Assembly (NCBI GenBank): GCA_964619725.1
Contig: CAZUFC010000002.1
Coordinates: 1 to 48,956 of the forward strand
Origin: an uncultured bacterium
GTDB lineage: Bacteria > CSSED10-310 > CAZUFC01
DNA length: 48,956 nucleotides
Direction: 5' to 3'
Shown: positions 7,636 to 30,355 of the stretch, in pieces
Layout: every line of letters starts with the position of its first letter
Numbering within the stretch: position 1 is the first letter of the stretch
Program-made: the position numbers and the translations under genes
Notes under the pieces: generated by a model
The model's input: only the letters and a program-made list of their open reading frames with translations
What the model was told of the DNA's origin: nothing
Database searches by the model: none

Positions 7636-7830
7636 TCAAAACTCAAACGGTCGATCAAATCCTGCTTCCTTCTTCGTTATAATTTTTTTGTCCGGAAAAA
7701 TCTCCTCAATTCGCTCAAGTATCTCGAGATATTCATCCAGGCTTAGCGGTTTCATACGCTCCTGCCGAATTTTCTCAATCGTCTCAACATCATCCCGCGT
7801 TATGGGAAGATGCTTTTCCAGGTCTATCAT
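7636..7830 (-). CDS. Small charged protein coupled to the nucleotidyltransferase (putative antitoxin/partner)
   Basis: 64 aa, ATGA overlap with the upstream NTase, GGGGATGAGGA RBS-like sequence, ends RPFEF. Confidence 0.6.
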   Translation of the reverse strand: MIDLEKHLPITRDDVETIEKIRQERMKPLSLDEYLEILERIEEIFPDKKIITKKEAGFDRPFEF

Positions 7831-8360
7831 TCCTCATCCCCCATTAATTCTTTCTTTTTTTCAGGAGTCGAATATTTTTGAAAATATTCCTGGACTTCCT
7901 CAAGATTCAGCCTGCTCAATTTCAGAAGATTCCTGATGTCTTCCCATTCCTTATGGCGACGGTCAGGATTGCATTTCACTGCGTAGAGTTTTAATGCGAT
8001 CAAATGTTCAGGCTTGACGACTTTGATCTTTTTATCTTCAAAAACAGTCTTTTTTCGGGCTTCTTTCAAAATTCTTTCTGCAGTCCTGTCCGAAACATAT
8101 AAAAAATCTATTCTCCCCATTCCGGGCAATGGATGCTCATGAGAAGAAAAAGCCGTGCTGCTTGAAAGCGTTTCATAACCGAGCGATTCCAGAAATTTTA
8201 CAATGGTTTGTTTGTATTCGTAGTGAGTCAGAATATCCAGGTCTATTGTCGTTCGTATTATCCCGTAAGCGCTGAGAGCGACTCCGCCTATCAGGGCATG
8301 GTCCATACTTTTTTTGTTGAAAAAATCCATCAGCATATTCAGAACATTTTTAAAATTCAT
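7827..8360 (-). CDS. Minimal Pol-beta-like nucleotidyltransferase (AbiEii/DUF6036-like putative toxin)
   Basis: ALIGGVALSAYGIIRTTIDLDIL (GG...R-T-x-D-x-D), RIDFL, EHLIALKLYA...R..K.WEDI. Confidence 0.8.
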   Translation of the reverse strand: MNFKNVLNMLMDFFNKKSMDHALIGGVALSAYGIIRTTIDLDILTHYEYKQTIVKFLESLGYETLSSSTAFSSHEHPLPGMGRIDFLYVSDRTAERILKEARKKTVFEDKKIKVVKPEHLIALKLYAVKCNPDRRHKEWEDIRNLLKLSRLNLEEVQEYFQKYSTPEKKKELMGDEE

Positions 8361-8549
8361 GGCTGTCGTAACTTCAGCCCTTCTTTTGTTCCCTTAACAG
8401 TTAAATTCTTCGAGCTCCCCCCGAATGGAACCGATTGATTTTCCCAGAGCGAGGAATTAAAAGGAACCAGCGACGTCTCCAAGTATATCATCACTCGCCC
8501 CTCATATAAACAATCACCAGGGACTTTGACTTCATTTTGATTCAATGAT

Positions 8550-8579
8550 TTGACATTTCAAATTTTTTCAATATAAAAT
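8550..8579 (+). promoter_or_regulatory. Sigma70-type promoter for the giant surface-protein operon
   Basis: TTGACA (8550-8555) - N18 - TAAAAT (8574-8579) in AT-rich intergenic DNA, about 185 bp before the ATG at 8763. Confidence 0.5.
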
Positions 8580-8762
8580 AAATAGATAAGAATTGAATGG
8601 AAAAAGCAGATTGCAGTTTGGTGCGGACGATTGAAAACATTAGTCATTTTTTCTTAAGAATAATTTTCTGCTTTTGATTGAGGAATTCGCAAAGCGAGGG
8701 GAGCGCAAAAAAATTTATGTGATCGGCCTCTTAGTTTTTTAAGGAGGCAGGGAGGAGAAATC

Positions 8763-11700
8763 ATGAAAAGGAAGAGGGCGCGAGTATATATCCTGGTATT
8801 ATTGACGTTAATCGTTTTAACGTCAGGCTGGACAGGCGATTTCGTTACCGCTCAGACGGTTTCCGGGACATTGACGGAGGATGAAACGTGGAGCGGGACG
8901 ATAGGGATTACGGGAGACGTGACGGTACCATACGACATCACGCTGACCATAAATCCTGGAACGGTGATTGAGTTCACGCCTTTATCTGATGACACGAACG
9001 GCGGTGCAGACAGTTCTCGCTGTGAGTTGATAATCAATGAAGGAACTATTTATGCAGCCGGTATGATCGGGAATGAAATTATTTTTACGAGCGCGGGGAC
9101 TGAGCCGGCGCCGTATGACTGGTACGGCATTCGTTTCATCGACTCATATGATCCCTATTGCGAACTCCAGTACTGCGACATCCAGTGGGCTTATAATGCG
9201 GTAAGCCTTTCTTCTTCTTCTCCGACAGTGAGTCATTGCACGATCGGGAACAACCATTTTCGCGGCATAACGGGCACGTTATCATCCTACCCTATGACGA
9301 TCGAAAACAATGAAATATTCAATTCAATCGGCAGTTCAGAGGGTTGCGGGATATACATCGACTTCAATAACGACAGGGCGGCGACGATTTCGGGCAACAA
9401 CCTTTACGGTCATGCCGATTGCGGTATTTATTTTGATATGCCCTATGTATCGAACGCCGAGGTCGGCATCGAGGGGAATGAAATTCACGACAACGAGGCC
9501 GAAGGCGTATATGTCGCTTTATACGGTTCAAACGGTCTGAGTCTGAATTTCAAGGAGAACCTTTGTTACAATAATGCAGACAACGGTTATTATTTTACGG
9601 GTTCCAACGCTTCGTCGGCTCAGGTTCATTTTTTCGGTTGCGAAACTTATTCCAACGAATCGGACGGCATATACATGAATTCGAGTCCCGGTACGACTAT
9701 TTCCATGATGAGCTGTGCGATTTACGACAATGAGAGCGTCGGAGTCTATTTCAACCAGGGGCATACGACTCTGGCCTATTGCGACGTTTACGACAACTAT
9801 GGACACGGGGTAAGATATCACGCGACGAACGGAGTTCAAAAGGCTTATTATTCGAACCTTTACAACAACGTTTATTATGAGATGTATAATAACGACGGCA
9901 ATGCGATTGACGCCCGGTTTTGCTGGTGGGGAGCTACTGCGACTGCGGAAATGAATTCTCTGGGATATACGGCTGACATTTCCCGGCTTTACGACATTCA
10001 CGATAATGCGGACAGAGGTATGATCGATTACAGGAACTGGTCCGGCAGCCAGATTGATACGTCCAAAGACCCCTTTTCCTTTATATCAAGCCCGTCGGAC
10101 GGCGCATCGCTGCACACGGGCGAGATAACGATTGAGGGGATAGCGGGAGCTTCTTCCGGAGTATTCTGGGTTGAACTCAGCACAGACGGCGGCGCCAATT
10201 GGTTTCAGGCGGAGGGTAAAGAGAGCTGGTCATTTACCTGGAACGTTTCAACAGAAGGCACATATGATCTGGTTTCCCGCGCCATGGATGAGGAGTTTCA
10301 ATATGAGACTCCGGGAGCCGGCATTACGGTCGACATTGACGACGGCGCAGTGACGACTTCCGGTACCGTCGTCGCAGACCAGACTTGGGACGGGGCGATC
10401 ACGGTGACCGGCGACGTCAAGGTGCCTGAAGACGTCACCCTGACGATACTTCCAGGGACAGTTATCACTTTTGCCGCCAGACGAGATGATGCGCAGGGAG
10501 GCGTCGACAATTCCCGCTGCGAATTAATCATCCAGGGAGCCCTCAATGCGGACGGCTCAGCAGGATCAGAAATAGTCTTCACATCCGATCAAACGACGCC
10601 GGCAACAAGGGATTGGTACGGAATCAGGTTCGATCAGCCTTACGATGCCGGCTGTCTGGCGGACTATTGCGACATTCAGTGGGCTGAGTCAGGCATTATG
10701 CTGGAAACGGCCGCGCCGACGATTACAAATAATTACATTGCGAATCATCAGCATAAAGGAATAACAGGAGTCGTCGCAGAACGAAATATTCTTATTCATG
10801 GAAATGAAATATGTTATTGCGGCTCAAACAGCAGCGATCACGGCATCAATCTCGATTTACCCTCAAACAGGACCATCACGGTCTCAGACAACCATGTTCA
10901 CGAGGTAAACGCGTGCGGTCTTTACGTCAACCTGGCTTATGAATCCGACACGGAATTAATCCTGGACGGCAATATCGCGCATGACAACACGGACGATGGA
11001 ATAAACATACCCGCCTACGGCTCCGCAAGACTGATCATAAACGTGAAAAACTCAGGTTCTTACAATAATGATGGTTACGGGTTCTATTTTTCCGGTTCCA
11101 ATTCGTCCGGCATGGAACTGAACGTCTCCGCCTGCGATTTTCATTACAACGATAACGACGGATGGAGGATTATGTGCAGCTCTTCCACGTCCGTCTTCGG
11201 ACTGGGCAACGTGATCTACCATAATCAGGGTTATGGAGTCTACCTTTCCAACGGACAGGGCGTTTTTGTTCACAATTCCATTCACACCAATATAAGCGAG
11301 GGAGTCTATTTAACCAACTGCAACAAAATCAACCGGCTTTATTACAACAATATCTACGGCAACAATCCTCATGAGATTCATAACGATTCATCCATAGCCG
11401 TGGATGCCAGAAATTGCTGGTGGGGCGAATATACTACTGTTCAAATGAATGCCTGGGGTTATTCCGCAGACATTTTTACCATATACGACATTCATGACGA
11501 CGGCAATAAAGGCATGGTCGATTACCGGGGATGGAAAACGGAAATGATTGAAACATCCAAGGACCCCGTATCTTACATCGCCGACCCGATGGACGGGATG
11601 ATCCTTCCTGTCGGCAATTTTACGGTCAAAGGCATCGCCGGCGCATCAGCAGGTGTAGATTTCGTTGAATTCAGCAAAGACGGAGGATCAAACTGGATGC

Positions 11701-14700
11701 TCGCGGATGGAAAGGAACAATGGACTTATGACTGGGCCGCTCTTTCAGAAGGCGCTTATCTGCTTCAATCCAGGGTTACCGACGAGGATGCCGCAGAGGA
11801 AGTCCCCGAACCGGGCGTCAACGTGGTAATCGATTCAGACAAGCTGCATACCTGGGGCACGCTTTATCAGAATGAAGTCTGGAGCGGTTCCATAACCATA
11901 AGCGGAGACGTCACCATACCCGAAGGCCGTACCCTCACCATCCTGCCTGGAACAAACATCACCATTAATGCATTGAGAGACGACAGCATGAGCGGAACGG
12001 ACACATCACGAATCGAATTTATCGTTAAAGGAAGTCTGATTGCAGACGGCACGTCTGAAGATATGATTACCTTCACCATCGATCAACCTTTCCCGGAACC
12101 GAGAGACTGGTACGGCATAAGGTTCCTCGATCAATCCAACGACGCTCAATGCACTCTTAACTATTGCGACATAAAATGGGGCGTCATCGGCGTCTCGCTT
12201 CATACCGCCTCACCCAATATTTCCAATAGCATCATCGGAAATCATTATTCCAGAGGAATATCCGGATCACCTTCCCTCATCCCCGAAAAAGACTTTCCTG
12301 AACCTTACGATCTTGTCATCTCCAGCAATGAAGTGTTCGAGTCTGGAACCGCTTCCGGCTATGGAATTTACCTCGAATGCACGTCAGGCGTCATTATTAC
12401 CCTCAATGATAATATCATTCACCATAACCTCGCTGAAGGACTTTTCTGTAACTTCACCTATCTTACGAATGTGAATCTCGACCTGATGAACAATGAGATA
12501 CACCATAACGGAGACGACGGCATGCAATTGAATCTGTACGGTTCATCAGGCATAACCGTGGCTTCAGACGCTGATGTCCTCTACAGCAATACCGAATGCG
12601 GCGCTTACGTCTCCTGTTCGAATGCCTCCAATATGCATTTGAATTTCGTGGATTGCGGATTCAATTCAAACGACACGGAGGGAATTTATATCAGAGGCAC
12701 GAATCAGACGCATGCTGATTTTAACGGCTGCTCCTTCCATCATAATGAAGGTTACGGAGTGTATATCTACGGCGGCAACGCTTCGTTTTCTTACTGCAGC
12801 GTATACCTGAATGACGATTACGGGATTCGTTTCAGGGGTTTGCACTCGATCGTGAGTTGCAGCGACAATAACATCAACGACAATTACGATTATGAAATTT
12901 ATAATGATTCATCCTATTCCGTCACGGCCATGAACTGCTGGTGGGGCATTACCACAACGGCCGAGATGGATGAGCTGGGATATCCCGCAAACATCGAAAG
13001 GCTGTATGATATTCACGATAATGCGTCATACGGCGAAATAAATTATGATAATTGGATACCGGGGCCCGTACCCACTGTAACGCCGTCATTCATTCCAACG
13101 GCGACTCCGGTGATGACTCCGCCGACGGCAGCGCCCACCCGGGAACCCACATCGGTCCCCACAGCGGCTCCTACGGCCACTCCCCAGGCGACCAATACTC
13201 CAACCCTTACCGCCATACCGACTAACACTCCCATCCCCCAAACCAATTGCGGGTGGTACGACGACTGGCAGGACTACGGCTGCGGCCTCAGCGGACTGGA
13301 AGGCGAAGATTTCGTCACATTCTTCGTGGTTCATCAACATTGCGACGTCACGATTTCCATAAACAACGTCACGCCTTCTGATTATGATCCCATCCTGTTG
13401 CTTCTGGACGGTCCTGGAGCCGAACATTGTTTCGACTTCGCAGACGAATACGGGGCTGCGGAAGGCGAAAGCATAACCATAACGGCCATGGAGCCGGGGA
13501 CTTATTATGCTGTAGTCGATTCTTATGAGAATTGCGGATTCTGGAACCTCACCCTGTCCATGGAGGATTGCGTCACGCCGACGCCTATTCCGACGGGAAC
13601 ATCCATTCCCCAGACAAATTGCGGGTGGTACGACGACTGGCAGGACTACGGCTGCGGCCTCAGCGGACTGGAAGGCGAAGATTTCGTTACATTCTTCGTT
13701 CTCAACCAGGTATGCGACATAACCTTGACCGTCGATAACATCACTCCCAACGATTACGATCCTATCCTCCTGCTTCTGGACGGCCCCAATCCCCTGTACT
13801 GCTTCGCCTTCGCCGACGATAACGGAGCCGGGCAGGGAGAAAGCATAAACATCGCTGCCATGGAACCGGGCAATTACTACGCAGTAGTAGATTCTTACGA
13901 AGAATGCGGGTACTGGAATCTATCTTATACGATAAACGATTGCCTGACATCAACCCCCAATCCCACGCCCACAGATACTCCCACGCCTTATCCGCAAACC
14001 AACTGCGGTTTCGCAGACGATTACCAGACCTATGGATGCGGCATTTCAGGCCTCGAAGGCGAAGACCTGGGCATATTCATTACAAATCATGAGTACTGCG
14101 ACGTCACCGTCTCCATCAATAACGTTACGCCCGCTGAATACGACCCTATCCTGCTCATTATGAGTTCCTCAAGCCCCGATGACTGCTTCATATACGCCGA
14201 CGAAAACGGACCGGGGGAAGGCGAATCCATCACCATGCCCGGTCTCGAACCTGCAGACTACTTCGTCGTTATAGACTCCTATGAATCGTGCGGATATTTT
14301 AACTTCATTCAATCCTTCGAAAACTGCCATATCTATTCGCCAACGCCTACCTTTACTCCGACACAGGGCATCACGCCTACAAGCACGCCTACCCATGCCT
14401 GCACCGTACTGCATGTCCCTCAGGACTTTCTCACCATACAGGAAGCCGTGGATGCAGCCATGGACTGCGATACCGTCCTGATCGACGACGGAACTTTTAC
14501 AGGCGATAAAAACAGAAATATCGACCTTAAATTCAAAGCCATTACCGTCACTTCCGCAAATGGAGCGGAAAATTGCATCATAGATTGCCAGGAAGCCGGC
14601 AGAGGATTCATCATTTTCCGGGGAGAAGGCGCTGATACCATCCTGAACGGACTCACCGTCCGGAACGCCGCCGCCACTTTCGGAGCCGGCATATATATCC

Positions 14701-15737
14701 AAAACTCCTCACCGACCATATCTGATTGCATTGTCTCATCCTGCATGTCAGAATCAGACGGCGGAGGCGTGTACTGCAGCAGCGAATCCTCACCCCTCAT
14801 CCAGGATTGCACTATCGTCGATAACTCCGCCGGAGGCATAGGCGGCGGCCTGTTCTGCCGCGACTACTCCAACGCGACCATTACCAATTCTGAAATCACC
14901 GGAAATGACGCTGAACACGGCGGAGGCGTCTACATCTATAATTCCACTCCTCACCTTACCGGATGCCTCATTACCGAAAATTACGGCGATCATAACGGCG
15001 GCGTATACTTCGATAACGATTCTGCAGGCATCCTTGAAAGTTGTATTATCGCCCGCAATTCTTCAATCGACCAGGGCGGCGGCCTGCACTTCGCCAGCAG
15101 CAGCGAAGAAGCGCTTATTAAAAATTGCCTGATAATCGGCAACATCACCCAAAACTACGGCGGAGGCGCCCAATGCTGGTACTCCAATCCCACCCTGCTT
15201 AATTGCACCCTCTCCGAAAACTCCGCAGGCATCGAATCAGGAGCCTTGAACTGCTTTAACTCAGCCCCGGTCATTAAAAACTCTATCTGCTGGAACAATT
15301 CGCCCGATGAAATCGGAACCTCAGGCGTATCAGTCATCTATATCACCTACTCCAATGTCCAGGGAGGCTTCGAAGGCGAAGGCAATATGAACCAGGACCC
15401 CTTGTTCGTCGCTCCGCTCAACGACGACTTTCATCTCCAATCCACTGCAGGAAGCTATCACAGCGGCGCCTGGGAACCGGATGAAAACTGCTCCCCCGCC
15501 ATCGATGCAGGCGATCCCGCAGACCCCTGCGACAACGAACCTTCCCCTCACGGAAACATCCTCAATATGGGAGCCTACGGCAATACCGATCAGGCATCAA
15601 AATCATGCTATCATTACATTCCCGCACTCTCCACAGCAGGATTACTCATTGTTATGAGCATCCTCGGGTTTTTTATACTATCTGCCTCAGCGTCAAAAAG
15701 GCTGAAACGAAGACATGAAAACAAACCGTGTTTATAA
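8763..15737 (+). CDS. Giant surface protein: 3x parallel beta-helix module (first two followed by an Ig-like domain), P/T linkers, 3x PPC-like Cys-containing domains, C-terminal beta-helix, IPTL-CTERM-like anchor
   Basis: Signal peptide. Modules of about 500 aa start SGTLxxDETWSG..ITGDVTVP and end DARxCWWG..YDIHD. Ig-like VELSTDGGANW..WSFTW. Repeats QTNCG..GLEGED..YDPILL..GESI..PGxYYAVVDSY. HVPQDFLTIQEAVDAA and GGGVY repeats, then DPLFV..DFHLQS..SPAIDAG..NMGAYG. C-terminus IPALS-TM-KRLKRR. Confidence 0.85.
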   Translation: MKRKRARVYILVLLTLIVLTSGWTGDFVTAQTVSGTLTEDETWSGTIGITGDVTVPYDITLTINPGTVIEFTPLSDDTNGGADSSRCELIINEGTIYAAGMIGNEIIFTSAGTEPAPYDWYGIRFIDSYDPYCELQYCDIQWAYNAVSLSSSSPTVSHCTIGNNHFRGITGTLSSYPMTIENNEIFNSIGSSEGCGIYIDFNNDRAATISGNNLYGHADCGIYFDMPYVSNAEVGIEGNEIHDNEAEGVYVALYGSNGLSLNFKENLCYNNADNGYYFTGSNASSAQVHFFGCETYSNESDGIYMNSSPGTTISMMSCAIYDNESVGVYFNQGHTTLAYCDVYDNYGHGVRYHATNGVQKAYYSNLYNNVYYEMYNNDGNAIDARFCWWGATATAEMNSLGYTADISRLYDIHDNADRGMIDYRNWSGSQIDTSKDPFSFISSPSDGASLHTGEITIEGIAGASSGVFWVELSTDGGANWFQAEGKESWSFTWNVSTEGTYDLVSRAMDEEFQYETPGAGITVDIDDGAVTTSGTVVADQTWDGAITVTGDVKVPEDVTLTILPGTVITFAARRDDAQGGVDNSRCELIIQGALNADGSAGSEIVFTSDQTTPATRDWYGIRFDQPYDAGCLADYCDIQWAESGIMLETAAPTITNNYIANHQHKGITGVVAERNILIHGNEICYCGSNSSDHGINLDLPSNRTITVSDNHVHEVNACGLYVNLAYESDTELILDGNIAHDNTDDGINIPAYGSARLIINVKNSGSYNNDGYGFYFSGSNSSGMELNVSACDFHYNDNDGWRIMCSSSTSVFGLGNVIYHNQGYGVYLSNGQGVFVHNSIHTNISEGVYLTNCNKINRLYYNNIYGNNPHEIHNDSSIAVDARNCWWGEYTTVQMNAWGYSADIFTIYDIHDDGNKGMVDYRGWKTEMIETSKDPVSYIADPMDGMILPVGNFTVKGIAGASAGVDFVEFSKDGGSNWMLADGKEQWTYDWAALSEGAYLLQSRVTDEDAAEEVPEPGVNVVIDSDKLHTWGTLYQNEVWSGSITISGDVTIPEGRTLTILPGTNITINALRDDSMSGTDTSRIEFIVKGSLIADGTSEDMITFTIDQPFPEPRDWYGIRFLDQSNDAQCTLNYCDIKWGVIGVSLHTASPNISNSIIGNHYSRGISGSPSLIPEKDFPEPYDLVISSNEVFESGTASGYGIYLECTSGVIITLNDNIIHHNLAEGLFCNFTYLTNVNLDLMNNEIHHNGDDGMQLNLYGSSGITVASDADVLYSNTECGAYVSCSNASNMHLNFVDCGFNSNDTEGIYIRGTNQTHADFNGCSFHHNEGYGVYIYGGNASFSYCSVYLNDDYGIRFRGLHSIVSCSDNNINDNYDYEIYNDSSYSVTAMNCWWGITTTAEMDELGYPANIERLYDIHDNASYGEINYDNWIPGPVPTVTPSFIPTATPVMTPPTAAPTREPTSVPTAAPTATPQATNTPTLTAIPTNTPIPQTNCGWYDDWQDYGCGLSGLEGEDFVTFFVVHQHCDVTISINNVTPSDYDPILLLLDGPGAEHCFDFADEYGAAEGESITITAMEPGTYYAVVDSYENCGFWNLTLSMEDCVTPTPIPTGTSIPQTNCGWYDDWQDYGCGLSGLEGEDFVTFFVLNQVCDITLTVDNITPNDYDPILLLLDGPNPLYCFAFADDNGAGQGESINIAAMEPGNYYAVVDSYEECGYWNLSYTINDCLTSTPNPTPTDTPTPYPQTNCGFADDYQTYGCGISGLEGEDLGIFITNHEYCDVTVSINNVTPAEYDPILLIMSSSSPDDCFIYADENGPGEGESITMPGLEPADYFVVIDSYESCGYFNFIQSFENCHIYSPTPTFTPTQGITPTSTPTHACTVLHVPQDFLTIQEAVDAAMDCDTVLIDDGTFTGDKNRNIDLKFKAITVTSANGAENCIIDCQEAGRGFIIFRGEGADTILNGLTVRNAAATFGAGIYIQNSSPTISDCIVSSCMSESDGGGVYCSSESSPLIQDCTIVDNSAGGIGGGLFCRDYSNATITNSEITGNDAEHGGGVYIYNSTPHLTGCLITENYGDHNGGVYFDNDSAGILESCIIARNSSIDQGGGLHFASSSEEALIKNCLIIGNITQNYGGGAQCWYSNPTLLNCTLSENSAGIESGALNCFNSAPVIKNSICWNNSPDEIGTSGVSVIYITYSNVQGGFEGEGNMNQDPLFVAPLNDDFHLQSTAGSYHSGAWEPDENCSPAIDAGDPADPCDNEPSPHGNILNMGAYGNTDQASKSCYHYIPALSTAGLLIVMSILGFFILSASASKRLKRRHENKPCL
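13245..13687 (+). repeat. Intragenic 71-bp identical direct repeat (13245-13315 and 13617-13687)
   Basis: AATTGCGGGTGGTACGACGACTGG...GGCGAAGATTTCGT occurs twice, 372 bp apart, at the start of PPC-like domains 1 and 2. Confidence 0.9.
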
Positions 15738-15748
15738 AAGGAGGAATT

Positions 15749-18700
15749 ATGAACCGAAGTCACCGAAATTTAATTCAAATTTCATTAACGGTTATTGTGC
15801 TTATCCTGTTGAATGCTCAACCCGTGATTTTTGCGCAAACCACATCCGGCACGCTTGCCGCTGATGAAACGTGGAGCGGAACGATAAATGTCACGGGAGA
15901 CATAACCGTTCCATACGGCGTAACTCTGACAATCGAACCGGGAACGACCGTCAGTTTTACCGCATTGTCGGACGATACGAACGGCGGAGCAGACAGTTCC
16001 CGCTGCGAATTTATAATCAACGAAGGCGAAATCCATGCTCTGGGGACCTCGGAGAATATGATCGTATTCACCAGCGCGGACTCTGAGCCTTCTCCCAGGG
16101 ATTGGTACGGTTTCCGTTTTGTCAATTCTTACGATCCTTATTGCGTGCTGGATTATTGCGACATTCAGTGGGGATATGCCGGCGTCAGGCTATCAACAGC
16201 TTCACCGACGATCAGCAATTGCATCATAGCCAACCATTCCTACAGGGGCATTTACGGCACGGTATCCGCTTTTTCGATGACTATCGAAAACAATGAGATA
16301 TATAACATTTTCGGCGATTCAAACGGATACGGCATTTTTATTGACTTTGAAAACAACAGGTCGGTCGCCATTTCAGGCAATGAAATTTACGGATGCGACG
16401 ACTCCGGCATCTACTGCGATATGCCTTATCAGTCAAATTCCGACGTGTCGATAACAGGCAACAGCATACATAACAACGGGGATCACGGGGTCTACATGAC
16501 GCTTTACGGGTCAAGCAATCTGGATGTGGAATTCAAAAATAATCTCTGCTACGAGAATCCAGGCCGGGGTTATTATCTCACCAGCTCGAATGCGAACAAT
16601 CTTGAAGTCTACTTCTACGGATGTGAGACATACTTGAATCAGGATGAAGGAATATATGCCACAGCAGACCCCGGCACAAATACAACCTTTACTCGATGTT
16701 CATTTCATGACAATGTGGATTCAGGATTGTACATAAACAAGGGTCATACGACTCTGGCTTACTGCGACGTATACGACAACGGCGGATACGGAATTCACTA
16801 CAATTCAACGAACGGTTTGCAGAAGGTTTATTACTGCAATATATACGGAAACATCGATTATGACTTGTATAACAACGATTCCAATGCGATCGATGCGAGA
16901 TTCTGCTGGTGGGGAGCCGCCGCCTATGCGGAAATGGAATCGTTGGGATATACTGCTGACATTTCGACTTTCTACGACATTCACGATAATGCGAACAAAG
17001 GTATGATCGATTACAGGGAATGGGCTTCCTCCCTGGTGGATACGTCCAAAGACCCGTTGTCTTTCATCACTTATCCGTCTGACGGCGATTCTCTGCACAG
17101 GGGCACGCTGGAGATCAAGGGACTGGCGGGAGCTACTGCAGGAATTTTCTGGGTGGACGTCAGCACAGACGGCGGGACGACGTGGTTTAACGCCCAAGGA
17201 GCGGAAAGCTGGACATTTCCCTGGAACGTTACGCTGGAAGGAACCTATCATATTAAATCACGGGCCATGGATAACGATTTTAATTTTGAAACGCCGGGTC
17301 CGGGCATCATAATAGATGTCGACGATTCCAACATTCATCAGTACGGGACGCTTACGACAGATGAAACCTGGAGCGGCTCCGTCACGGTTACGGGCGACAT
17401 TATCGTGCCTGACGAGAAAACTTTAACCATAATGCCGGGGACGGTTGTAACCATTGCGGCGCTCAGGGACGATACTTACAGCGGCAGGGATAATTCCCGT
17501 GTTGAGTTCGTCATCAGGGGCGCTTTATCCGCGAACGGAAGGCCGGGACAGGAGATCATATTTACTTCAGATAAAGCAACTCCGGGCAAACGTGACTGGT
17601 ACGGCATCAGGTTCAGCGATCCCTACGACGCCGGCTGTATAGTCGATCATTGCGATATTCAGTGGGCCTGTTATGGAATCAAACTGGAAGACTCCGCGCC
17701 GCTCGTAACGAATAATCACATTGCGAACATTCAGTATGAGGGTATTACCGGCGATATCACCGAAAGGGATATGATTATCCAGGGCAATGAGATTTATAAC
17801 AGCGGCTCCACCAGCAGCGACTGGGCGATTAACCTGGATTTTCCTCCGAACAGAGAAATCATCATTTCGGATAACTACGTTCATGACGTTTACGCTGGCG
17901 GACTCTACCTCTATATGCCCTATACAGCGAACACTGAACTCTTTATGGACGGCAACATCATCCATACATGCGGAGATGACGGAATGAGCATTCTGGCATA
18001 CGGCTCCAGCGGAATCAACATTGACATTAAAAATACCGACTCCTATAACAATGATGAGTACGGCATTTATCTTTCAAGCACAAACTCAAACAACTTTAAC
18101 TTCAGATTCAGCGCCGGGGAAATTCACTCAAACGACAACGACGGTTTGCGTCTTACATGCAATACCAACAATTCGCTCTACTTTTTCGGAAACGACATTT
18201 ATCACAACCAGGGCTACGGCGTTTATCTGTCTCAAGGACGCGGCGTTTTCGTTCAGAATTCGATCCATACGAATACCAGTATGGGCGTATACCTGACATC
18301 CTGCAACAAGATCAACAAGCTTTATTACAACAACATTTTCGGCAACAGCACGTATGAACTTTACAACGATTCCTCCAGGGCCGTCGACGCCAGAAACTGC
18401 TGGTGGGGAGACTACACCGCAGCCCAGATGAACGCCTGGGGATACTCATCAGACATCTTTTCCATTTTCGACATTCACGACAACGGCGCCAAAGGCATGG
18501 TCGATTATCGGGGATGGACTCAGGGCCAGATCGATATCGCTACAGACCCGGTTTCTTACATAATAGATCCCATGGAAGGCATGACTCTTCCTGTCGGTGA
18601 TTTTACCGTTAAAGGCGTTGCCGCGGCATCTGCAGGCATCGATTACGTGGACTTCAGTGCAGACGGAGGAGTCAACTGGGCCGCAGCGGAAGGAGCAGAA

Positions 18701-20908
18701 CAATGGTCGGAAGTTTGGCCGGCGCTTACTGAAGGTTATTACTTGCTTAAATCTCAGGCCTACGATCTTGAGGATAATATTGAAATGCCCGGTCCGGGAG
18801 TGAACGTCCTCGTCGATGCGGACAAACTGCATACATGGGGGACGCTCTACGAGGATGAAACCTGGAGCGGGACCGTCAACGTCACGGGCGATGTCGTCGT
18901 GCCGGAAGACAAAACGCTTACTATTTTACCGGGAACTAATGTCGTTCTGACGGCATTGAGAGACGATTCGATGAGCGGAACGGACACCTCACGTATAGAA
19001 ATTATCGTGCACGGCGCTTTGATAGCCGACGGCGAACCAGGCAATCGAATTACATTCTCCGTCAATCAGCCGTTCCCGAATCCAGGCGACTGGTACGGCA
19101 TCAGGTTTGCCGATGAATCCGACGATGAATTATGCATTCTGGATTACTGCGATCTTCAATGGGGATATATTGGAGTCACGCTCCATACGGCTTCTCCGGC
19201 CATTTCCCACTGCACCATCAGCAACAACTATTACAGAGGCATTTCAGGCAAGCCGTCTGCAGCCCCTTCACGCGATTTCCTGGCGCCCTATGATCTCGTC
19301 ATCTCTCATACCGAAATTTCTGATACGGGCAGCGCTTCAGGCTACGGCATCTACCTGGAATGCTCCCCCAACATCGTCATCACTATGAATGGAAACAATA
19401 TTCATCACAACGCCGAAGAAGCAATATTCTGCAGTTTCGCATATCAGTCCAACGTGACGTTCAATATGTCGAACAACCAATGTCATCACAACGGAGACGA
19501 CGGCATACAGATGTATCTTTACGGCTCCAGCGGCATGACGGTCAATTCCCAAGGCGATTCGTTCTACAGCAATACCGAAAGCGGCGCTTACCTCTCCTGC
19601 TCCAATGCAAACAACCTCCATCTCAACTACATCGATTGCGAATTCTATTCCAACGACAGCTACGGGTATTACCTCAGAGGCAGCAACCAGACTTATATCT
19701 CCTGCGAATACAGCACATTTCATCATAACGAGGCGTACGGCGTCTATCTCTACGGAGGTAGAGCATCCTTTTCCAACAACGATGTATACCTGAACGACGA
19801 TTACGGCATACGTTTCCGCAGTATGAATTCAGTGATGACATGCGATTACAGCAACATCTACGATAATTACGATTATGAAATCTATAATGACTCTAGCTAC
19901 TCCGTGGATGCCCAATACTCCTGGTGGGGTGAAACAACAACGGCCGATATGGACCAGCAGGGCTACCCCGCGAATATAGAAAGACTCTACGATATCCGCG
20001 ATAATGCCTCCTACGGCGAAGTCAATTACAATAACTGGCTGTCCGCGCCCATCCCGTCGCCCACCCCCACTATAGGACCGACAGGAACGCCCGTACCGCC
20101 CACCGCCACGCCCACTTACGGCCCGACGTTGATCCCCACGGCCACGGTAGTCTGCTGGAACGACGGAGACGTCGACGACACCGGAACCCTAACACCCCAG
20201 GATGCGCAACTCTCATTCATGATTTATCTCGGCATTATAGCGACTCCCACTCACGATCAGGCCTGCTCCGCAGACTGTAACGGTTCAGCCTTCATTACGC
20301 CCGAAGACGCTCAATGCATCTTCCTTCATTTCATGGATATGGACTGCGATTGCGCCAATGAAGTCATACCCGGCTTTAAAAGCGACCAAAAATCACAGGC
20401 CGTTATGAATGACGCCCTCCGATTCGACCGCAGACAACATCCCTTGAGCACGGATCGGACTGGAAAGCTCTATTTCTATGCAGAATACGATCAAAGGCAA
20501 AATGTTGTTGAACTGCATATCGGCATCAGCGACAACAGCAATTACATCGACTCTTTCGGATTCAATATAGCCTATCCCAACTGCAAACTGGCATACGTGG
20601 ACGCAGAATTTTCCGAGTGCGTCAAGGATTGGCCGCTGATAGCAGCGAAAAACAAAGGCAATGCAGTCACAGCCGGAGGATGCTCCGTTTATGATGCCAT
20701 ACCTCCCCACTCCGCAGACCGCCTTCTTACGCTGACTTTCAGTCCCCGACTGAATCGTAACGCTTTTACCCTTCCCAATGCCGCAGACTTCAGTTTATTT
20801 GCTCTCACCGACGATGTGAACGGTTATGAAACACTCCCCATATTCTCTCTCCCCTCAGATAACGATCAGGCGCTCTCATTTCACGATAACGTCCTGAATC
20901 AGAGATGA
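15749..20908 (+). CDS. Giant secreted paralog: 3x beta-helix(+Ig) modules, P/T linker, dockerin, cohesin-like C-terminal domain
   Basis: Start moved to ATG 15749 (AAAGGAGG RBS, signal peptide). N-terminal ~1430 aa is colinear with 8763..15737. Duplicated Ca-loop motifs GDVDDTGTLTPQDAQ and ADCNGSAFITPEDAQ, then IDSFGFNIAYP..KLAYV..VTAGG..IPPHSADRLLTLTF. No C-terminal TM. Confidence 0.85.
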   Translation: MNRSHRNLIQISLTVIVLILLNAQPVIFAQTTSGTLAADETWSGTINVTGDITVPYGVTLTIEPGTTVSFTALSDDTNGGADSSRCEFIINEGEIHALGTSENMIVFTSADSEPSPRDWYGFRFVNSYDPYCVLDYCDIQWGYAGVRLSTASPTISNCIIANHSYRGIYGTVSAFSMTIENNEIYNIFGDSNGYGIFIDFENNRSVAISGNEIYGCDDSGIYCDMPYQSNSDVSITGNSIHNNGDHGVYMTLYGSSNLDVEFKNNLCYENPGRGYYLTSSNANNLEVYFYGCETYLNQDEGIYATADPGTNTTFTRCSFHDNVDSGLYINKGHTTLAYCDVYDNGGYGIHYNSTNGLQKVYYCNIYGNIDYDLYNNDSNAIDARFCWWGAAAYAEMESLGYTADISTFYDIHDNANKGMIDYREWASSLVDTSKDPLSFITYPSDGDSLHRGTLEIKGLAGATAGIFWVDVSTDGGTTWFNAQGAESWTFPWNVTLEGTYHIKSRAMDNDFNFETPGPGIIIDVDDSNIHQYGTLTTDETWSGSVTVTGDIIVPDEKTLTIMPGTVVTIAALRDDTYSGRDNSRVEFVIRGALSANGRPGQEIIFTSDKATPGKRDWYGIRFSDPYDAGCIVDHCDIQWACYGIKLEDSAPLVTNNHIANIQYEGITGDITERDMIIQGNEIYNSGSTSSDWAINLDFPPNREIIISDNYVHDVYAGGLYLYMPYTANTELFMDGNIIHTCGDDGMSILAYGSSGINIDIKNTDSYNNDEYGIYLSSTNSNNFNFRFSAGEIHSNDNDGLRLTCNTNNSLYFFGNDIYHNQGYGVYLSQGRGVFVQNSIHTNTSMGVYLTSCNKINKLYYNNIFGNSTYELYNDSSRAVDARNCWWGDYTAAQMNAWGYSSDIFSIFDIHDNGAKGMVDYRGWTQGQIDIATDPVSYIIDPMEGMTLPVGDFTVKGVAAASAGIDYVDFSADGGVNWAAAEGAEQWSEVWPALTEGYYLLKSQAYDLEDNIEMPGPGVNVLVDADKLHTWGTLYEDETWSGTVNVTGDVVVPEDKTLTILPGTNVVLTALRDDSMSGTDTSRIEIIVHGALIADGEPGNRITFSVNQPFPNPGDWYGIRFADESDDELCILDYCDLQWGYIGVTLHTASPAISHCTISNNYYRGISGKPSAAPSRDFLAPYDLVISHTEISDTGSASGYGIYLECSPNIVITMNGNNIHHNAEEAIFCSFAYQSNVTFNMSNNQCHHNGDDGIQMYLYGSSGMTVNSQGDSFYSNTESGAYLSCSNANNLHLNYIDCEFYSNDSYGYYLRGSNQTYISCEYSTFHHNEAYGVYLYGGRASFSNNDVYLNDDYGIRFRSMNSVMTCDYSNIYDNYDYEIYNDSSYSVDAQYSWWGETTTADMDQQGYPANIERLYDIRDNASYGEVNYNNWLSAPIPSPTPTIGPTGTPVPPTATPTYGPTLIPTATVVCWNDGDVDDTGTLTPQDAQLSFMIYLGIIATPTHDQACSADCNGSAFITPEDAQCIFLHFMDMDCDCANEVIPGFKSDQKSQAVMNDALRFDRRQHPLSTDRTGKLYFYAEYDQRQNVVELHIGISDNSNYIDSFGFNIAYPNCKLAYVDAEFSECVKDWPLIAAKNKGNAVTAGGCSVYDAIPPHSADRLLTLTFSPRLNRNAFTLPNAADFSLFALTDDVNGYETLPIFSLPSDNDQALSFHDNVLNQR

Positions 20909-20926
20909 ACCGGAGGTGGTATAGGA

Positions 20927-22300
20927 ATGAAACAAATAAGACTAATTTTCAGTCTCATAATTCTTTCGATTGTCCTTTTGCTGGAACCGGTCGCAGGAGA
21001 CGCTCAAACCCAGGGCGACATGCTGCTGGTTGAAAATTTTTCGGGCTGCACCGATGATACGGTACAAACCGCTCTCAACATTTCCAATCCCGATTCAGAA
21101 CTCGATTCCTTCGGCCTGGATATCCTCTACCCGAACGATAAACTCTCCTTCTCCTCCTGCGTCAGGGGCGACCTGACATTCGCCTGGTCCTATTTCACTT
21201 ACAACGAAATCGAACCTGGAAGAGTCAGAATAGGAGGATACAGCCTCTCGCCCATACCCGACGGCAGCGAAGGAAGCATCGCCAGAATCAATTTCGTCGT
21301 AACGTGCGGCGCTTGTGAGGAACTGGATGAAGATACGATAGAGTTGACCGATATGGTTGACGACATCGCGGGATGGGAAACCCAGCCGGGAACCTTCACC
21401 TATATCTGCGACCCTCTGATCTGGGTTCATGACTCATCCGGAGAATACTGCGAATTCATCAGCATCCCCATATCCATATCCAATCCCGACGCTCCGCTGG
21501 ATTCCATGGGGTTCGATGTTCTCTATTCCCACGACATGATTGTCCCGGTTTCATGCGAACCGGGAGAACTCAACTCAGCCTGGCCCTACTTCATCTACAA
21601 CCTCATCGAACCGGGACGACTGCGAATCGGCGGCTTCGATACCGAACCCATTGAACCCGGCTGCATCGGCACGGTAGCCAATATGACCTTCATGGTCAGA
21701 TGCTTTAATTGCGAAATTGGCGATCAGTGCGAACTGTCCTTCAGCGGCCGCGTAGACGATATAGCAGATTGGCAGACAGGAAACGGCTCTTTCACCTTCC
21801 TGGGAGGTCCAACTCCGCCGCCTACATGCATGGTGACCGAAACCCCAACGGAAACTCCAACGCCATCGCAGACCCCCACAACCACAAACACACCGACAGA
21901 ATCACCCACCTGCACAATGACCGATACCGCAACCCGGACCCTTACCGCCACAACAACACCTACAGACACCGCTACCCCTACCGCCACAACAACACCTACA
22001 GACACCGCTACCCCTACCGCCACAACGACTCCAGCACCTACCCAGGCGCTTACCGACACTCCAACCCCTACTACTACGCCGACACTTACTCCGACGCCCA
22101 CACTCACACCTACAAGCACCCCAACCGCATCCCCGACCGCAACGAATACTTTTACCCCCATCTCCGCTACACCCACAATAACCCTATCGCCGACCGCTCC
22201 GCCAATTCCCGCCGCATCCCCCAGAAGCATCCTCCTCCTGACCGTCATATTTGCCGCTTTCCTTCTCTCCTCAACCTCATTTAAAAAGGAAGGTCTATGA
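20927..22300 (+). CDS. Two-cohesin anchoring mini-scaffoldin with Thr/Pro linker and IPTL-CTERM-like anchor
   Basis: Signal peptide. Two ~130-aa repeats SG.....I.ISNPD..LDSxGxDxLY....C..GxL..AWxYFxYNxIEPGRxRIGG....PIxxGxxGxxAxxxFxVxC (cohesin-like). About 130-aa T/P tract, then IPAAS-TM-KK. GGAGGT RBS. Confidence 0.75.
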   Translation: MKQIRLIFSLIILSIVLLLEPVAGDAQTQGDMLLVENFSGCTDDTVQTALNISNPDSELDSFGLDILYPNDKLSFSSCVRGDLTFAWSYFTYNEIEPGRVRIGGYSLSPIPDGSEGSIARINFVVTCGACEELDEDTIELTDMVDDIAGWETQPGTFTYICDPLIWVHDSSGEYCEFISIPISISNPDAPLDSMGFDVLYSHDMIVPVSCEPGELNSAWPYFIYNLIEPGRLRIGGFDTEPIEPGCIGTVANMTFMVRCFNCEIGDQCELSFSGRVDDIADWQTGNGSFTFLGGPTPPPTCMVTETPTETPTPSQTPTTTNTPTESPTCTMTDTATRTLTATTTPTDTATPTATTTPTDTATPTATTTPAPTQALTDTPTPTTTPTLTPTPTLTPTSTPTASPTATNTFTPISATPTITLSPTAPPIPAASPRSILLLTVIFAAFLLSSTSFKKEGL

Positions 22301-22522
22301 TTATTTCCCCGCGTTAAATTTGGGACTGCCCAAAGCCGTAATTCTCAAAGGAAATCCTATGCCCGGCTCAACAGGATGCCGTACCACCTTCACTGTTTCT
22401 ATTCTCGGCACTGATCAGGCCAATCAAAAAAACCGGTGCATTGATCCCTCCTTACCAAAGCTGACTTTTACACACACGTGACACAAAAGTTCGATTGGCT
22501 CCACACTGTATATATCATTTAC

Positions 22523-22664
22523 GGCATTGATCAAAAATGCGTGTTTTAGGGTAGCAATTCTTCAGAATATCCCATCATTTTGTTTCGATTTCGATACCGA
22601 CCCCGATTACTGAAACAAACTGTCAAACCTTTTGAAAAAGTGTAATCCCGGTTTGATCAGACCT
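22523..22664 (-). mobile_element. Family B MITE-like element (inverted orientation)
   Basis: GGCATTGATCAAAAATGCG...CCCGGTTTGATCAGACC. Its reverse complement aligns along the length with 7370-7518. Confidence 0.7.
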
Positions 22665-22962
22665 AAAAGTCATTTGTCGCCCATGAAATATATTGAGATT
22701 TCCGGGTCCGCGCCTGCGGCCTTACCCTTGATGAAGTCTTTCCTGGACATTCATTCTATCGGAAAGTCGAAAGAAGTGCGCTTTACGTCAACATCGATCA
22801 TTTTATTCGATAGATACGTGTAAATCGGGGTCGGGATCGGCATCGAAATCGAAACCGCTAATTACCAGGGGCTTTCCGTATAAGAAACGTTTCAATATAC
22901 CGACATTGAACCCTTGCCCGTAAAGGCGCCGCCAAAATTAAAATTTAACCGCTGTCATCATG

Positions 22963-23096
22963 CTCTTCTCTTTTCGCGTAAATTCGCGTGATTTCGCGGA
23001 TAAAAAATTCTTAGAAAATGCTTTAATCATTTACACATGCCGGACTGGATTTTTTTTATCCGCGAAACTTCACGAATTCACGCGAAAAAGAGGGAG
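22963..23096. repeat. Long imperfect inverted repeat (stem-loop)
   Basis: TTTTCGCGTAAATTCGCGTGATTTCGCGGATAAAAAA pairs with TTTTTTATCCGCGAAACTTCACGAATTCACGCGAAAA. Arms are built from TTCGCG sub-repeats. Confidence 0.75.
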
Positions 23097-23165
23097 TCCT
23101 CAGAAATGTCTCGTTAGATGGCAATCGTCGCTGTCGTATTTGACGGATGATCTTCAAAAAATATT

Positions 23166-23321
23166 GGGACTGATCAAACCGGGGTTAAAATTCTTTATAA
23201 TCGCTTGACAGTTTGTTTCAGCAATCGGGGTCAGTATCAGCATCGGAATCTCAATCGAAATAAAAATGAAGGGATATTCTACAAAATCGTAAACTCTAAA
23301 GACCCATTTTTGATCAATGCC
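23166..23321 (+). mobile_element. Family B MITE-like element
   Basis: GGGACTGATCAAACCGGGG...CATTTTTGATCAATGCC with an internal hexamer tract. Confidence 0.7.
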
Positions 23322-23412
23322 GTTTTTATTTTATTCCTGGCTTGAATTGAATTACACTGGAGCAGGAAGCGAGTTGCGGGATTTTGTGGCGGCATCACAT
23401 GGAATTTTCGTT

Positions 23413-24876
23413 ATGAAAAAATTTGATCGTTTTCCTGAATTGCTCATGTTCATTACCGTTCTGGTTTATTTTGTCATTATTGTCGCAGCTTCATTGCATC
23501 AAGTGAACCGGTTCGGAGAAATTGAGGACCTGGATGTGGCGGTTCAGGGATGCTGGAGCGTTCTTCATGGGTATGGGACTCACAGTTTCCGGGCTGAAGG
23601 AGGATTCTTCTCCCTGCATGTTATGCTGATGGTCTTCCCTGTCGTACTGGTATTCGCTCTTTATCCCGGACCGCACATATTGCTGATTCTGCGCAGCCTA
23701 TTTCTGGCCGGCGCGGGAGTTCCTCTGTTTTACCTGGCCCGGCGAAAATTGCAGAATTCTTGGCTTGCTCTTCTTTTTACCGGAACGCTTTTTCTGTATT
23801 TTCCTTATAATGCGCTCTCTTTTTCAACATTCGCAGGTTTTCACATGGATATTCTTGCCGCTCCTCTTCTGATTCTTGCTTTTTGCCTCCTTGAATATAA
23901 AAAACATAAGTCTTTTTTCATCGTCCTCGCAATGATCTTTCTTCTGAAGGAAAATATGGCCTTTCTGGGCATCACGACAGGACTTTACCTGTTCTTTTTC
24001 CTCAAAAAGCAAAAATTGGGACTCTTTACCCTGGGAGCCGCTCTTTTGTGGATCATCCTCTCCATATTCGTCATCCTTCCATTAGGTAACGGAATGCCTC
24101 CTTTTTCTTCAGCGCCGCTCAACATGGATTTCGGCGCCGAACTGGGACAAAGTCTGCCGGAAGTCGCCGTAAATGCGGTCAAACGCCCTCTGATCACATA
24201 CAAAATACTGACCCGGCCTGAAAATATGCGCCTGCTGCATGAACAATTCTGGCCCCTGGCTTACCTGCCGGCGCTCAGCCCTGAAGCGGCCTTTATTTCT
24301 TTACCTATATTCCTTCAGAATTTCCTGGCTGATGATGCCAAACATAAAACAGTTTTCCGCTGGTACCAGGCTCCGATTTATCCGTTTCTTTTCCTTGCCC
24401 TGATCCTGAGCGTACAAAGGCTCGGCCATGGTTTCGGGTCATTGTTCAAACGAACGCCAAGGTCTGCGTTTTTTATTAAAACGTGTTTGATCGCGCTGGT
24501 TCTCATACTATGTCTGTATTCCAATTTCAGCGAATCCTTTTTTCGGGTTGAACAACCTCTCCCGCTCATGAATAAAGAAAAAGCCGAAGCTGCAGCAACG
24601 ATTCTTCGGAAAACTCCTGAATCAGCTTCATTGCTCTGCACTCGTAATTTTTTGCCTCATGCGGCGCTTCGTCGATATTATGCCTCACTGGCCGATTACT
24701 TTAATCCTGATATCCCGCATGTCAGGGACGTCGACTGGCGCTATGTCCTGGTTGATGAAGCAGTGGCTGCACAAGAGTTCGATATTGAATTGGAGCGTTT
24801 GCTGATGAAATATAAAATGATAGACTCTTGTCACGGAATAACCCTTTACCGGCAAATTGAAACTGAATCGCCATGA
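23413..24876 (+). CDS. DUF2079-like multi-TM membrane protein (predicted GT-C glycosyltransferase)
   Basis: EDLDVAVQGCWSVLHG, PLFYLARRKL, GFHMDILAAP, LLKEN, WYQAPIYP, with many TMs. Start placed at 23413 because the ATG at 23317 lies inside the repeat end. Confidence 0.7.
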   Translation: MKKFDRFPELLMFITVLVYFVIIVAASLHQVNRFGEIEDLDVAVQGCWSVLHGYGTHSFRAEGGFFSLHVMLMVFPVVLVFALYPGPHILLILRSLFLAGAGVPLFYLARRKLQNSWLALLFTGTLFLYFPYNALSFSTFAGFHMDILAAPLLILAFCLLEYKKHKSFFIVLAMIFLLKENMAFLGITTGLYLFFFLKKQKLGLFTLGAALLWIILSIFVILPLGNGMPPFSSAPLNMDFGAELGQSLPEVAVNAVKRPLITYKILTRPENMRLLHEQFWPLAYLPALSPEAAFISLPIFLQNFLADDAKHKTVFRWYQAPIYPFLFLALILSVQRLGHGFGSLFKRTPRSAFFIKTCLIALVLILCLYSNFSESFFRVEQPLPLMNKEKAEAAATILRKTPESASLLCTRNFLPHAALRRYYASLADYFNPDIPHVRDVDWRYVLVDEAVAAQEFDIELERLLMKYKMIDSCHGITLYRQIETESP

Positions 24877-26753: not shown

Positions 26754-26957
26754 AACATGAATCCTCTGTTTATGGAAATAATGGTTATGAGGCTCTTCGG
26801 ACTCGAACGGCTTGAATCGGAACTGAGGGCCTTCAACAATGTCTGAGAAATGCAAAAGTTGTTTTTTTATTGATTATGTCGAAGCGGTCCTGCTGAATCG
26901 TCCGGGTAAAGAGACTCACGCTCCGGGGACCAGGTTTTTACGATTTTATAAGTATCA

Positions 26958-28634: not shown

Positions 28635-28662
28635 CAAAGTTGATGCTTATCGACAAAAAAAT

Positions 28663-30351: not shown

Positions 30352-30355
30352 TACC

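Follow-up and report, generated by a model that had tools for sequence, protein, structure and literature searches.

We have identified a cohesin-dockerin locus in a 48,956-nucleotide stretch of DNA from an uncultured bacterium of the candidate phylum CSSED10-310 (contig CAZUFC010000002.1 of assembly GCA_964619725.1); this whole stretch is hereafter called the window. Four DNA sequencing runs are listed, all from a single study of microbial mat metagenomes, and this DNA may come from one of them; RNA runs are absent from the list. Two adjacent genes carry the system: a cargo gene, whose product joins a giant beta-helix passenger to a Cys-rich dockerin and a cohesin, and a small gene for a stalked protein with two cohesins and a C-terminal sorting tail, here called the mini-scaffoldin. 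Together they represent a real, non-cellulosomal cohesin-dockerin assembly, whose modules are predicted to bind one another. We consider it probable that the dockerin plugs into a cohesin of the stalked protein, that the latter undergoes exosortase processing, and that the giant protein is in this way held at the cell envelope.

Three genes lie head to tail on the forward strand. Based on translation and Pfam, the first (8763..15737) encodes a giant of 2324 amino acids (aa) that is a paralogue of the cargo. The second, the cargo gene (15749..20908), encodes 1719 aa and was called from the list of open reading frames (ORFs), translation and Pfam; the third (20927..22300) encodes the 457-aa mini-scaffoldin, composed of a signal peptide, two cohesins, a Thr/Pro stalk and the sorting tail. 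As listed, the cargo ORF begins at GTG 15728, and since a Shine-Dalgarno sequence, AAGGAGG, stands at 15738-15744, 4 nt ahead of ATG 15749, the latter is the correct start, in agreement with a preliminary description of this DNA made from the sequence alone. That description also placed the second gene of the pair 18 bp beyond the cargo gene, as we find; the gap (20909..20926, +) contains GGAGG. A promoter and terminator scan of 8000-23500 gave chance-level counts (27 vs 23.3 and 16 vs 13.9) and no terminator-like site in the gap.

The window holds three genuine, divergent cohesins, with dockerin binding as their predicted function. Two of them, cohesin 1 (21005..21415, +) and cohesin 2 (21410..21811, +), are the two cohesin-like repeats already recognized in the mini-scaffoldin; they measure about 135 aa each and are 43% identical to one another. 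The third lies in the tail of the cargo (20450..20851, +). The curated cohesin family PF00963 gave no match on these modules in whole proteins, in cut-out pieces at E<=10 or in a genome scan at E<=1, and direct Pfam and NCBIfam scans of both proteins and their pieces found no cohesin or dockerin match. The Pfam check proposed in the preliminary description (PF00963 and PF00404) was thus negative for both families on the window's own modules, even for pieces at E<=10. This miss reflects a limit of the curated cohesin model, which does not define the fold. Because the Pfam models miss these modules, their identity was shown through paralogues, profiles and folds.

The paralogues are numerous. 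The genome contains 41 PF00963 places, about 30 of them over the cut-off, and the window repeats show 27-51% identity with 48 further places, many of them Pfam-positive, and 35-51% identity with the paralogues that pass PF00963. An iterated profile run on the genome's ORFs collected 54 cohesin modules in 32 ORFs, many coinciding with over-cut-off PF00963 places; cohesin 2 scored 160 bits against this family profile and the tail cohesin 96 bits. When an alignment of 53 of the modules (A1) was compared with the sequences of the PDB, all 22 matches were cohesins, the best at E 6.4e-8. A homologue search with the whole stalked protein was dominated by matches to its Thr/Pro stalk, yielded two apparent true relatives, one of them PF00963-positive, and is uninformative on rarity.

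The predicted folds agree with the profiles. The AlphaFold model of cohesin 1 has a predicted local distance difference test score (pLDDT) of 96.5, and all the matches listed for it by Foldseek in the PDB are cohesins, with top template-modelling scores of 0.77-0.82 and E 2e-10; its fold is nearest to type I cohesins and to the Archaeoglobus fulgidus cohesin 2xdh. The dockerin-cohesin tail of the cargo was modelled with a pLDDT of 87.3 and a predicted template-modelling score (pTM) of 0.83, the linker being of low confidence. For the cohesin in this model (residues 104-237), all 50 entries listed by VIA-align are cohesins, with a best Z of 14.2 and a root-mean-square deviation of 2.5 A over 123 residues. 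The entry 2xdh was among the best structural matches of both modules (rank 5 in Foldseek for cohesin 1 and Z 13.7 in VIA-align for the tail cohesin). Both modelled modules resemble solved cohesins, with their nine-stranded beta-sandwich (jelly-roll), the fold that the preliminary description had anticipated for the two repeats. The tail cohesin is only 24% identical to cohesin 1 of the scaffoldin.

The duplicated Ca-loop motif near the end of the cargo is likewise present, at 20153..20353 (+), and is a genuine, divergent dockerin by its sequence, with Ca-dependent binding as its predicted function. It comprises two tandem loop-helix segments, each with a Ca-type loop of 12 residues, DVDDTGTLTPQD and DCNGSAFITPED, in which D, N, T or S occupies positions 1, 3, 5 and 9 and D occupies position 12. 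The two segments are symmetric, since both read TPxDAQ, and the Ca-ligand pattern of both loops is kept across 21 aligned modules. Six conserved Cys residues set this family apart from classical dockerins. In the tail model the dockerin helices span residues 20-30, 39-45 and 55-65 at pLDDT 91-97. A second profile found 25 modules in 25 ORFs, with E to paralogues down to 1e-30. Against the PDB, the alignment of 21 modules (A2) recovered mainly dockerin chains of solved complexes (4fl4_A, 4uyp_B, 5nrm_B, 2ccl_B, 1ohz_B, 4dh2_B and 8ajy_B), each individually weak, the best at E 0.0025. The dockerin fold is assigned from sequence, profile and secondary structure; the structure lists of the tail model are filled by its cohesin half.

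PF00404 gave no match on the window dockerin, either in the proteins and their pieces (E<=10) or in the genome scan at the site (E<=1). Elsewhere in the genome it has 28 places, 11 over the cut-off, and nine of those 11 fall within the dockerin family defined here. A separate Dockerin_1 (PF00404) row in the window at 13493-13639 contains an in-frame stop and is spurious. At least two further dockerin classes, which lack the Cys pattern, occur in the genome, on the contigs labelled here C19 (50898-64965), C106 (11518-23493), C215 (664-9651), C9 (11323-20364) and C45 (21307-30324). One class is found inside proteins of 2881-3500 aa that are followed by cohesin ORFs, at least two of these tail-anchored; the other lies at the N-terminus of proteins of about 3000 aa.

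The mini-scaffoldin is built as an anchoring protein should be. Its cohesins are followed by a stalk of 129 aa (21812..22198, +) with 60 Thr and 26 Pro, and then by a tail (22199..22297, +) that reads PPIPAASPRS, a hydrophobic helix ILLLTVIFAAFLL and KKEGL, so that the long Thr/Pro stalk, sorting signal and transmembrane segment of the preliminary description, and its reading of the protein as an anchoring mini-scaffoldin, are borne out by the build of two cohesins, stalk and tail. The cohesin proteins have tails of one common form, in which [IV]-P-[AS]-x-x-x-x-G is followed by a hydrophobic helix and then Lys/Arg. We surveyed the 6738 ORFs of at least 150 aa for a C-terminal [IVL]P.., a transmembrane segment and at least two Lys or Arg residues. 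This signal, whose motif is PP[IV]PA[LAV][SG]xxG, ends 184 of the 6738 ORFs, compared with 4-7 for random internal windows and 1-4 for shuffled tails, and Gly stands at +7 in 71% of the matches, though the pattern left Gly free. Among the 184 tail-bearing ORFs, 73 are of at least 1000 aa and 28 of at least 2000 aa. A tripartite signal of the CTERM kind is therefore present on many proteins of this one genome, and the tail of the stalked protein fits it.

The genome has a single match to PF09721, the exosortase/archaeosortase family, in a 190-aa ORF at L043:1453-2025 (-) that adjoins a tail-bearing ORF. With 65.7 bits this ORF passes TIGR04178 (cut-off 23). The nearest named enzymes are archaeosortase B (78.2 against a cut-off of 150) and exosortase H (76.6 against 86), but it falls short of both cut-offs. 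Its homologue is single in 13 of the 14 genomes of the phylum searched, the fourteenth having two. Named CTERM models of NCBIfam matched none of seven tails at E<=10, a result in which the HMMER filters may hide weak matches; only midcut_by_XrtH surfaced on the seven tails tested (E 0.017-0.19), and the nine genome matches of TIGR04174, all weak, lie outside the cohesin ORFs. The exosortase-type anchor that had been suggested is thus upheld as to its kind, by the 184-ORF tail signal and the one exosortase-family gene, but with a new class of tail: because no named CTERM model matches it, we regard the tail as an uncatalogued class of exosortase-type signal, with cleavage as a prediction. Two further ORFs of the window carry the same C-terminal signal, one of 1524 aa (39876-44450, -) with CARDB, CarboxypepD_reg and PEGA domains and one of 720 aa (32286-34448, -) without any Pfam family.

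As to the envelope that such a tail would serve, the genome has LpxC and six Omp85-family matches, which point to an outer membrane. A genome announcement, the one paper found on the named phylum, predicts Gram-negative cells and is silent on cohesin and dockerin modules (PMC8248873). With LpxC and Omp85 genes in the genome, the tail anchor alone does not place the complex on the outer surface.

The arrangement of the window recurs in the genome. The assembly of this 9-Mb genome is 90.9% complete and 6.5% contaminated, and the census takes in the near-duplicate contig pairs C276/C277 and C86/C122. These two pairs and C42/C81 are near-identical or about 90% alike, carry dockerin or cohesin genes and are probably strain variants in the bin; since such contigs are included, the module and cassette counts are somewhat inflated. 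A cohesin begins 15-48 aa past the dockerin in 20 of the 25 dockerin ORFs (28 aa in the window cargo). Eleven unanchored dockerin-cohesin cargo ORFs fall in ten cassettes, and in each cassette the next ORF on the same strand combines one to five cohesins with the tail, as a rule by way of a stalk rich in Thr, Pro and Ser (0-550 aa); the contig of the window has one further cassette, at 62-69 kb. An unanchored dockerin gene followed by an anchored cohesin gene is thus a recurring order, seen in about ten cassettes. Five dockerin-cohesin proteins bear their own tail and have no anchored cohesin neighbour, and the remaining ones lie at contig ends or are interrupted by stops. In-frame TAG stops between or within dockerin-cohesin tails occur at C12:40039-40745 (-), where TAG separates a dockerin ORF of 106 aa from a cohesin, and at C25:47759-48301 (-); these could be pseudogenes, assembly errors or read-through.

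Two points of the preliminary description had to be revised. The cargo does not end with its dockerin: about 180 residues follow, and they hold the third cohesin (20450-20851; 96 bits, Z 14.2). The two genes are also not a self-contained pair, because the locus has three cohesins for one dockerin, one of the cohesins sits on the cargo itself, and the genome has sister cassettes and further dockerin classes. In a quick-search tree of the cohesins, with supports from the Shimodaira-Hasegawa-like approximate likelihood ratio test (SH-aLRT), eight tail cohesins, including that of the window, form a separate clade (support 95), and the window's two scaffoldin cohesins group with those of four sister cassettes. 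In a second cassette type, tail and scaffoldin cohesins fall together in one clade (98).

Based on these results, the following sequence of events may be proposed. The cargo and the stalked protein would both be exported by way of their signal peptides; the stalked protein would be retained through its tail and processed by the one exosortase-family enzyme of the genome; and the cargo dockerin would dock, with Ca required, on a cohesin of the stalked protein, which would hold the beta-helix giant at the cell envelope. The divergent cohesin of the cargo would offer a further socket, and assemblies could then branch or chain. The passenger may serve as an adhesin or matrix binder, or as a polysaccharide-active enzyme.

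Several observations weigh against this proposal. The window's own modules fail both PF00963 and PF00404, the profile match of the dockerin to the PDB is weak (E 0.0025), and the tails match no named CTERM model (0/7). A C-terminal tail in the inner membrane leaves unexplained how a 1719-aa protein and its carrier arrive at the surface. The census counts take in near-duplicate contigs, and the contamination is 6.5%. There are three cohesins at the locus for one dockerin, the dockerin-cohesin tandem is a fixed unit in the 20 of 25 dockerin ORFs, and the tail model reaches its pTM of 0.83 despite a low-confidence linker, which fits a dockerin resting on its own cohesin and not on that of the neighbour.

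The last of these observations lead to another reading, in which the dockerin binds the cargo's own tail cohesin, either in cis as a closed latch or in trans in head-to-tail chains of the Ruminococcus bromii Amy4 type, and the two cohesins of the stalked protein serve other dockerins. The short linker of 15-48 aa within the frequent tandem and the high pTM with a disordered linker both favor such self-binding, as does the retention of the tandem in the five self-anchored proteins that have no scaffoldin neighbour. Additionally, in a search of 1.84 billion cluster representatives with the dockerin-cohesin tail profile (4306 proteins at E<=0.001, 288 of them at E<=1e-30), dockerin and cohesin were matched as one stretch in about 59 of the best 150 proteins, as tallied by eye. 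An experimental precedent is described in an excerpt of PMC4611034, where the cohesin of Amy4 binds its own dockerin. However, the tail cohesin belongs to a clade separate from that of the scaffoldin cohesins and is 24% identical to cohesin 1, so that a fit of the dockerin to both cannot be assumed, and every unanchored cargo with a readable flank has an anchored cohesin neighbour, which a pure self-binder would not need. This strict pairing of cargo with anchored socket speaks against self-binding as the whole story. We consider self-binding rather unlikely as the principal function of the dockerin; it can coexist with docking on the mini-scaffoldin.

The system extends beyond this genome. 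A pattern scan for related loci, made with one genome per species, found nine: four from CSSED10-310 bins, three in one further bin, one from a Pseudomonadota-labelled and one from a Hydrogenedentales-labelled bin. The dockerin profile was positive in 10 of 13 other genomes of the same phylum (1-70 places each) and in none of 27 genomes of other phyla, and the cohesin profile in nine of the 13 (6-30 places each). This distribution bears on the view that the two modules are structural parts that do not bind one another, for example spacers or Ca-stabilised portions of a stalk, and that the gene order arose from duplication only. In its favor, an excerpt of PMC5244752 describes the role of non-cellulosomal cohesins and dockerins as unknown. 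Mere structural parts are nevertheless highly improbable here, given that the partners have co-expanded in the same genomes, that plug-bearing and socket-bearing genes are strictly adjacent, and that both Ca loops are kept across the 21 aligned dockerins. At L045:2-7306 (+), one relative has the gene of a dockerin-cohesin cargo and, behind it, a gene for 777 aa with three cohesins and a dockerin at the C-terminus; this is an adaptor-scaffoldin layout and implies a further tier.

We took 20 dockerin places from three well-assembled sister genomes (G006, G009 and G010), a small, non-random sample from the top of the match list; these smaller genomes have 22-35 dockerin places each. Complete proteins were obtained for 15 of the 20 places, out of several hundred across the 14 phylum genomes. 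Peptidases made up 11 of the 15 (four M14, three S8, two astacins and two C25), one protein had FG-GAP, and three had no other domain. PF00404 was passed by 14 of the 15. The dockerin stands at the extreme C-terminus in 14, and in the fifteenth a cohesin begins after it. Dockerin-borne secreted peptidases of this kind would be the peptidase-displaying counterpart of a cellulosome.

In the window the cargo is of a different nature. The protein consists of a signal peptide, three repeats that each combine a NosD-like beta-helix with an Ig-like Big_7 domain, a Pro/Thr-rich linker (20045..20152, +, read from sequence), the dockerin and the cohesin. The passenger matches Beta_helix at E 1.4e-55, NosD at E 1e-26 and Big_7. 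Its translation lacks a C-terminal transmembrane segment, which agrees with the earlier statement that the cargo has no membrane anchor. Pfam scans of 23 window ORFs and of 17 dockerin proteins of the genome gave no glycoside-hydrolase family, and the cargo is, as had been proposed, a beta-helix giant rather than a cellulase. Of the 16 other dockerin proteins scanned, 11 are beta-helix proteins and the rest have FG-GAP/CARDB, Laminin_G_3 or PLD/TIG.

Pectate lyases and GH28 enzymes are among the proteins with a right-handed beta-helix fold, and the repeats could possibly be polysaccharide lyases, hydrolases or epimerases, in which case the locus would encode an enzyme complex analogous to a cellulosome for another polymer. 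The strong Beta_helix and NosD matches are in line with this, and the same dockerin is borne by enzymes in the three sister genomes. However, no catalytic CAZy-type Pfam family was detected in the cargo or in the 16 other dockerin proteins of the genome, a PDB sequence search with one passenger repeat found no relative, and the other cargo types (FG-GAP/CARDB, Laminin_G_3) resemble binding domains. An enzyme complex is unlikely on this evidence.

The upstream paralogue has the same beta-helix/Ig passenger, with 62.7% identity to the cargo over 1441 aa, and matches Beta_helix, NosD, Big_7 and PPC. It has neither dockerin nor cohesin. Behind the passenger come PPC-like repeats, three in number and rich in Cys, and then a fourth beta-helix, and the protein closes with an [IV]PA-type tail of its own (YIPALSTAG, a transmembrane segment and KRLKRR), which was counted in the genome survey. 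One passenger is therefore held in two ways at this locus, by its own tail in the upstream gene and by dockerin and cohesin in the cargo gene.

Further genes surround the three-gene block. Just 5' of it, on the opposite strand, is a small nucleotidyltransferase ORF (DUF2204 / AbiEii-like) at 7827-8360 (-), and a lone 11/12 site at 8550-8579, 5' of the upstream paralogue, is a lead only. Downstream, the genes of 23317-31612 (+) specify a membrane protein with DUF2079, a protein with TPR, a tandem pair of PMT_2+TPR glycosyltransferases that are strongly similar (E 5.5e-161), and a B12 radical-SAM protein in which one stretch weakly resembles TssG. A conserved link of the cohesin genes to these downstream genes, for example through glycosylation of the stalk, was considered and rejected, because among the matches listed their homologues adjoin no other cohesin ORF.

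Cohesin and dockerin modules outside cellulosomes are already known. What is new here is the uncatalogued exosortase-type tail, the Cys-rich dockerin, the fixed dockerin-cohesin tail, the beta-helix cargo and the spread across a phylum. In the literature searched, cohesin and dockerin were nowhere combined with PEP-CTERM; one paper mentions them together with exosortase but without connection. The locus joins cellulosome-type modules to a different sorting machinery, formed by an exosortase-family enzyme and a new tail motif, in a different type of envelope, as the outer-membrane genes indicate, and on different cargo, namely beta-helix giants here and peptidases in the sister genomes. If the predicted binding and surface location are true, these modules would provide a general means of tethering secreted proteins in a little-known phylum, and they would also add new orthogonal plug-and-socket pairs, in which the dockerins are Cys-rich and the cohesins of a single cassette type fall into at least two clades. 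More tentatively, a candidate phylum with an outer membrane might tether its exoproteome by one plug-and-socket system with a minimal exosortase, such that small-genome members display peptidases, while the 9-Mb member builds a modular coat, unrelated to cellulose degradation, from beta-helix giants that chain and branch on stalked sockets by their dockerin-cohesin tails.

Cohesin-dockerin pairing is the textbook mode of cellulosome assembly in Firmicutes, where the complex is held at the wall by SLH domains or by sortase. The present locus would work alike as an anchoring pair; the defining feature of the cellulosome, plant-cell-wall glycoside hydrolases with dockerins, is absent, and we do not class the locus as a cellulosome because the 17 dockerin proteins scanned gave no glycoside-hydrolase Pfam family. 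A closer likeness is offered by R. flavefaciens ScaE and R. bromii Sca2, in which a small cohesin protein with a sorting signal holds dockerin proteins at the cell; according to an excerpt of PMC4611034, the partners of Sca2 are not confined to glycosidases and include, for example, a peptidase. ScaE and Sca2 have a single cohesin and a sortase motif and belong to single-membraned Firmicutes, whereas the mini-scaffoldin has two cohesins, nearest in fold to type I, a giant beta-helix cargo and an [IV]PA...G tail with transmembrane segment and Lys/Arg, in a genome with an exosortase-family enzyme, LpxC and Omp85.

The cargo, which bears both cohesin and dockerin, resembles R. bromii Amy4 of the amylosome. 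According to the same excerpt (PMC4611034), the dockerin of Amy4 has two binding partners, the Amy4 cohesin and the anchored Sca2, a combination that corresponds to the coexistence of docking and self-binding considered above. Amy4 is an amylase of family GH13 whose binding was shown by experiment, whereas the pairing at our locus is predicted from sequence; moreover, the dockerin here precedes the cohesin by 28 aa at the extreme C-terminus, and the tandem is a fixed tail found in 20 ORFs.

Among uncultured lineages, Candidatus Stygibacter (Cloacimonadota bins) is predicted, in an excerpt of PMC8542988, to have a cellulosome-like system. In that prediction the dockerins are borne by various enzymes, S8 and C25 peptidases among them, and the cohesin-bearing scaffoldin ends in a sorting domain that is not of the sortase type. 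The sister genomes of the present phylum similarly bear the dockerin on S8, C25, M14 and astacin peptidases. Unlike Stygibacter, the genome described here has many small scaffoldins, an exosortase-type tail and dockerin-cohesin tails, and has no carbohydrate-binding module.

The modules also recall those of organisms that do not degrade cellulose, such as the Archaeoglobus fulgidus cohesin (2xdh). Non-cellulosomal cohesins and dockerins are reportedly treated in a review by Peer et al. (2009). According to an excerpt of PMC5244752, ANME archaea have them in abundance, with a function given as unknown. Finally, the PEP-CTERM/exosortase and IPTL-CTERM/XrtH systems (TIGR04178, TIGR04177 and TIGR04174) share with the present one a tripartite C-terminal signal on many secreted proteins and a small polytopic exosortase-family enzyme; unlike in those systems, the enzyme here falls below the XrtH and archaeosortase B cut-offs, and the tail motif is PP[IV]PA[LAV][SG]xxG.

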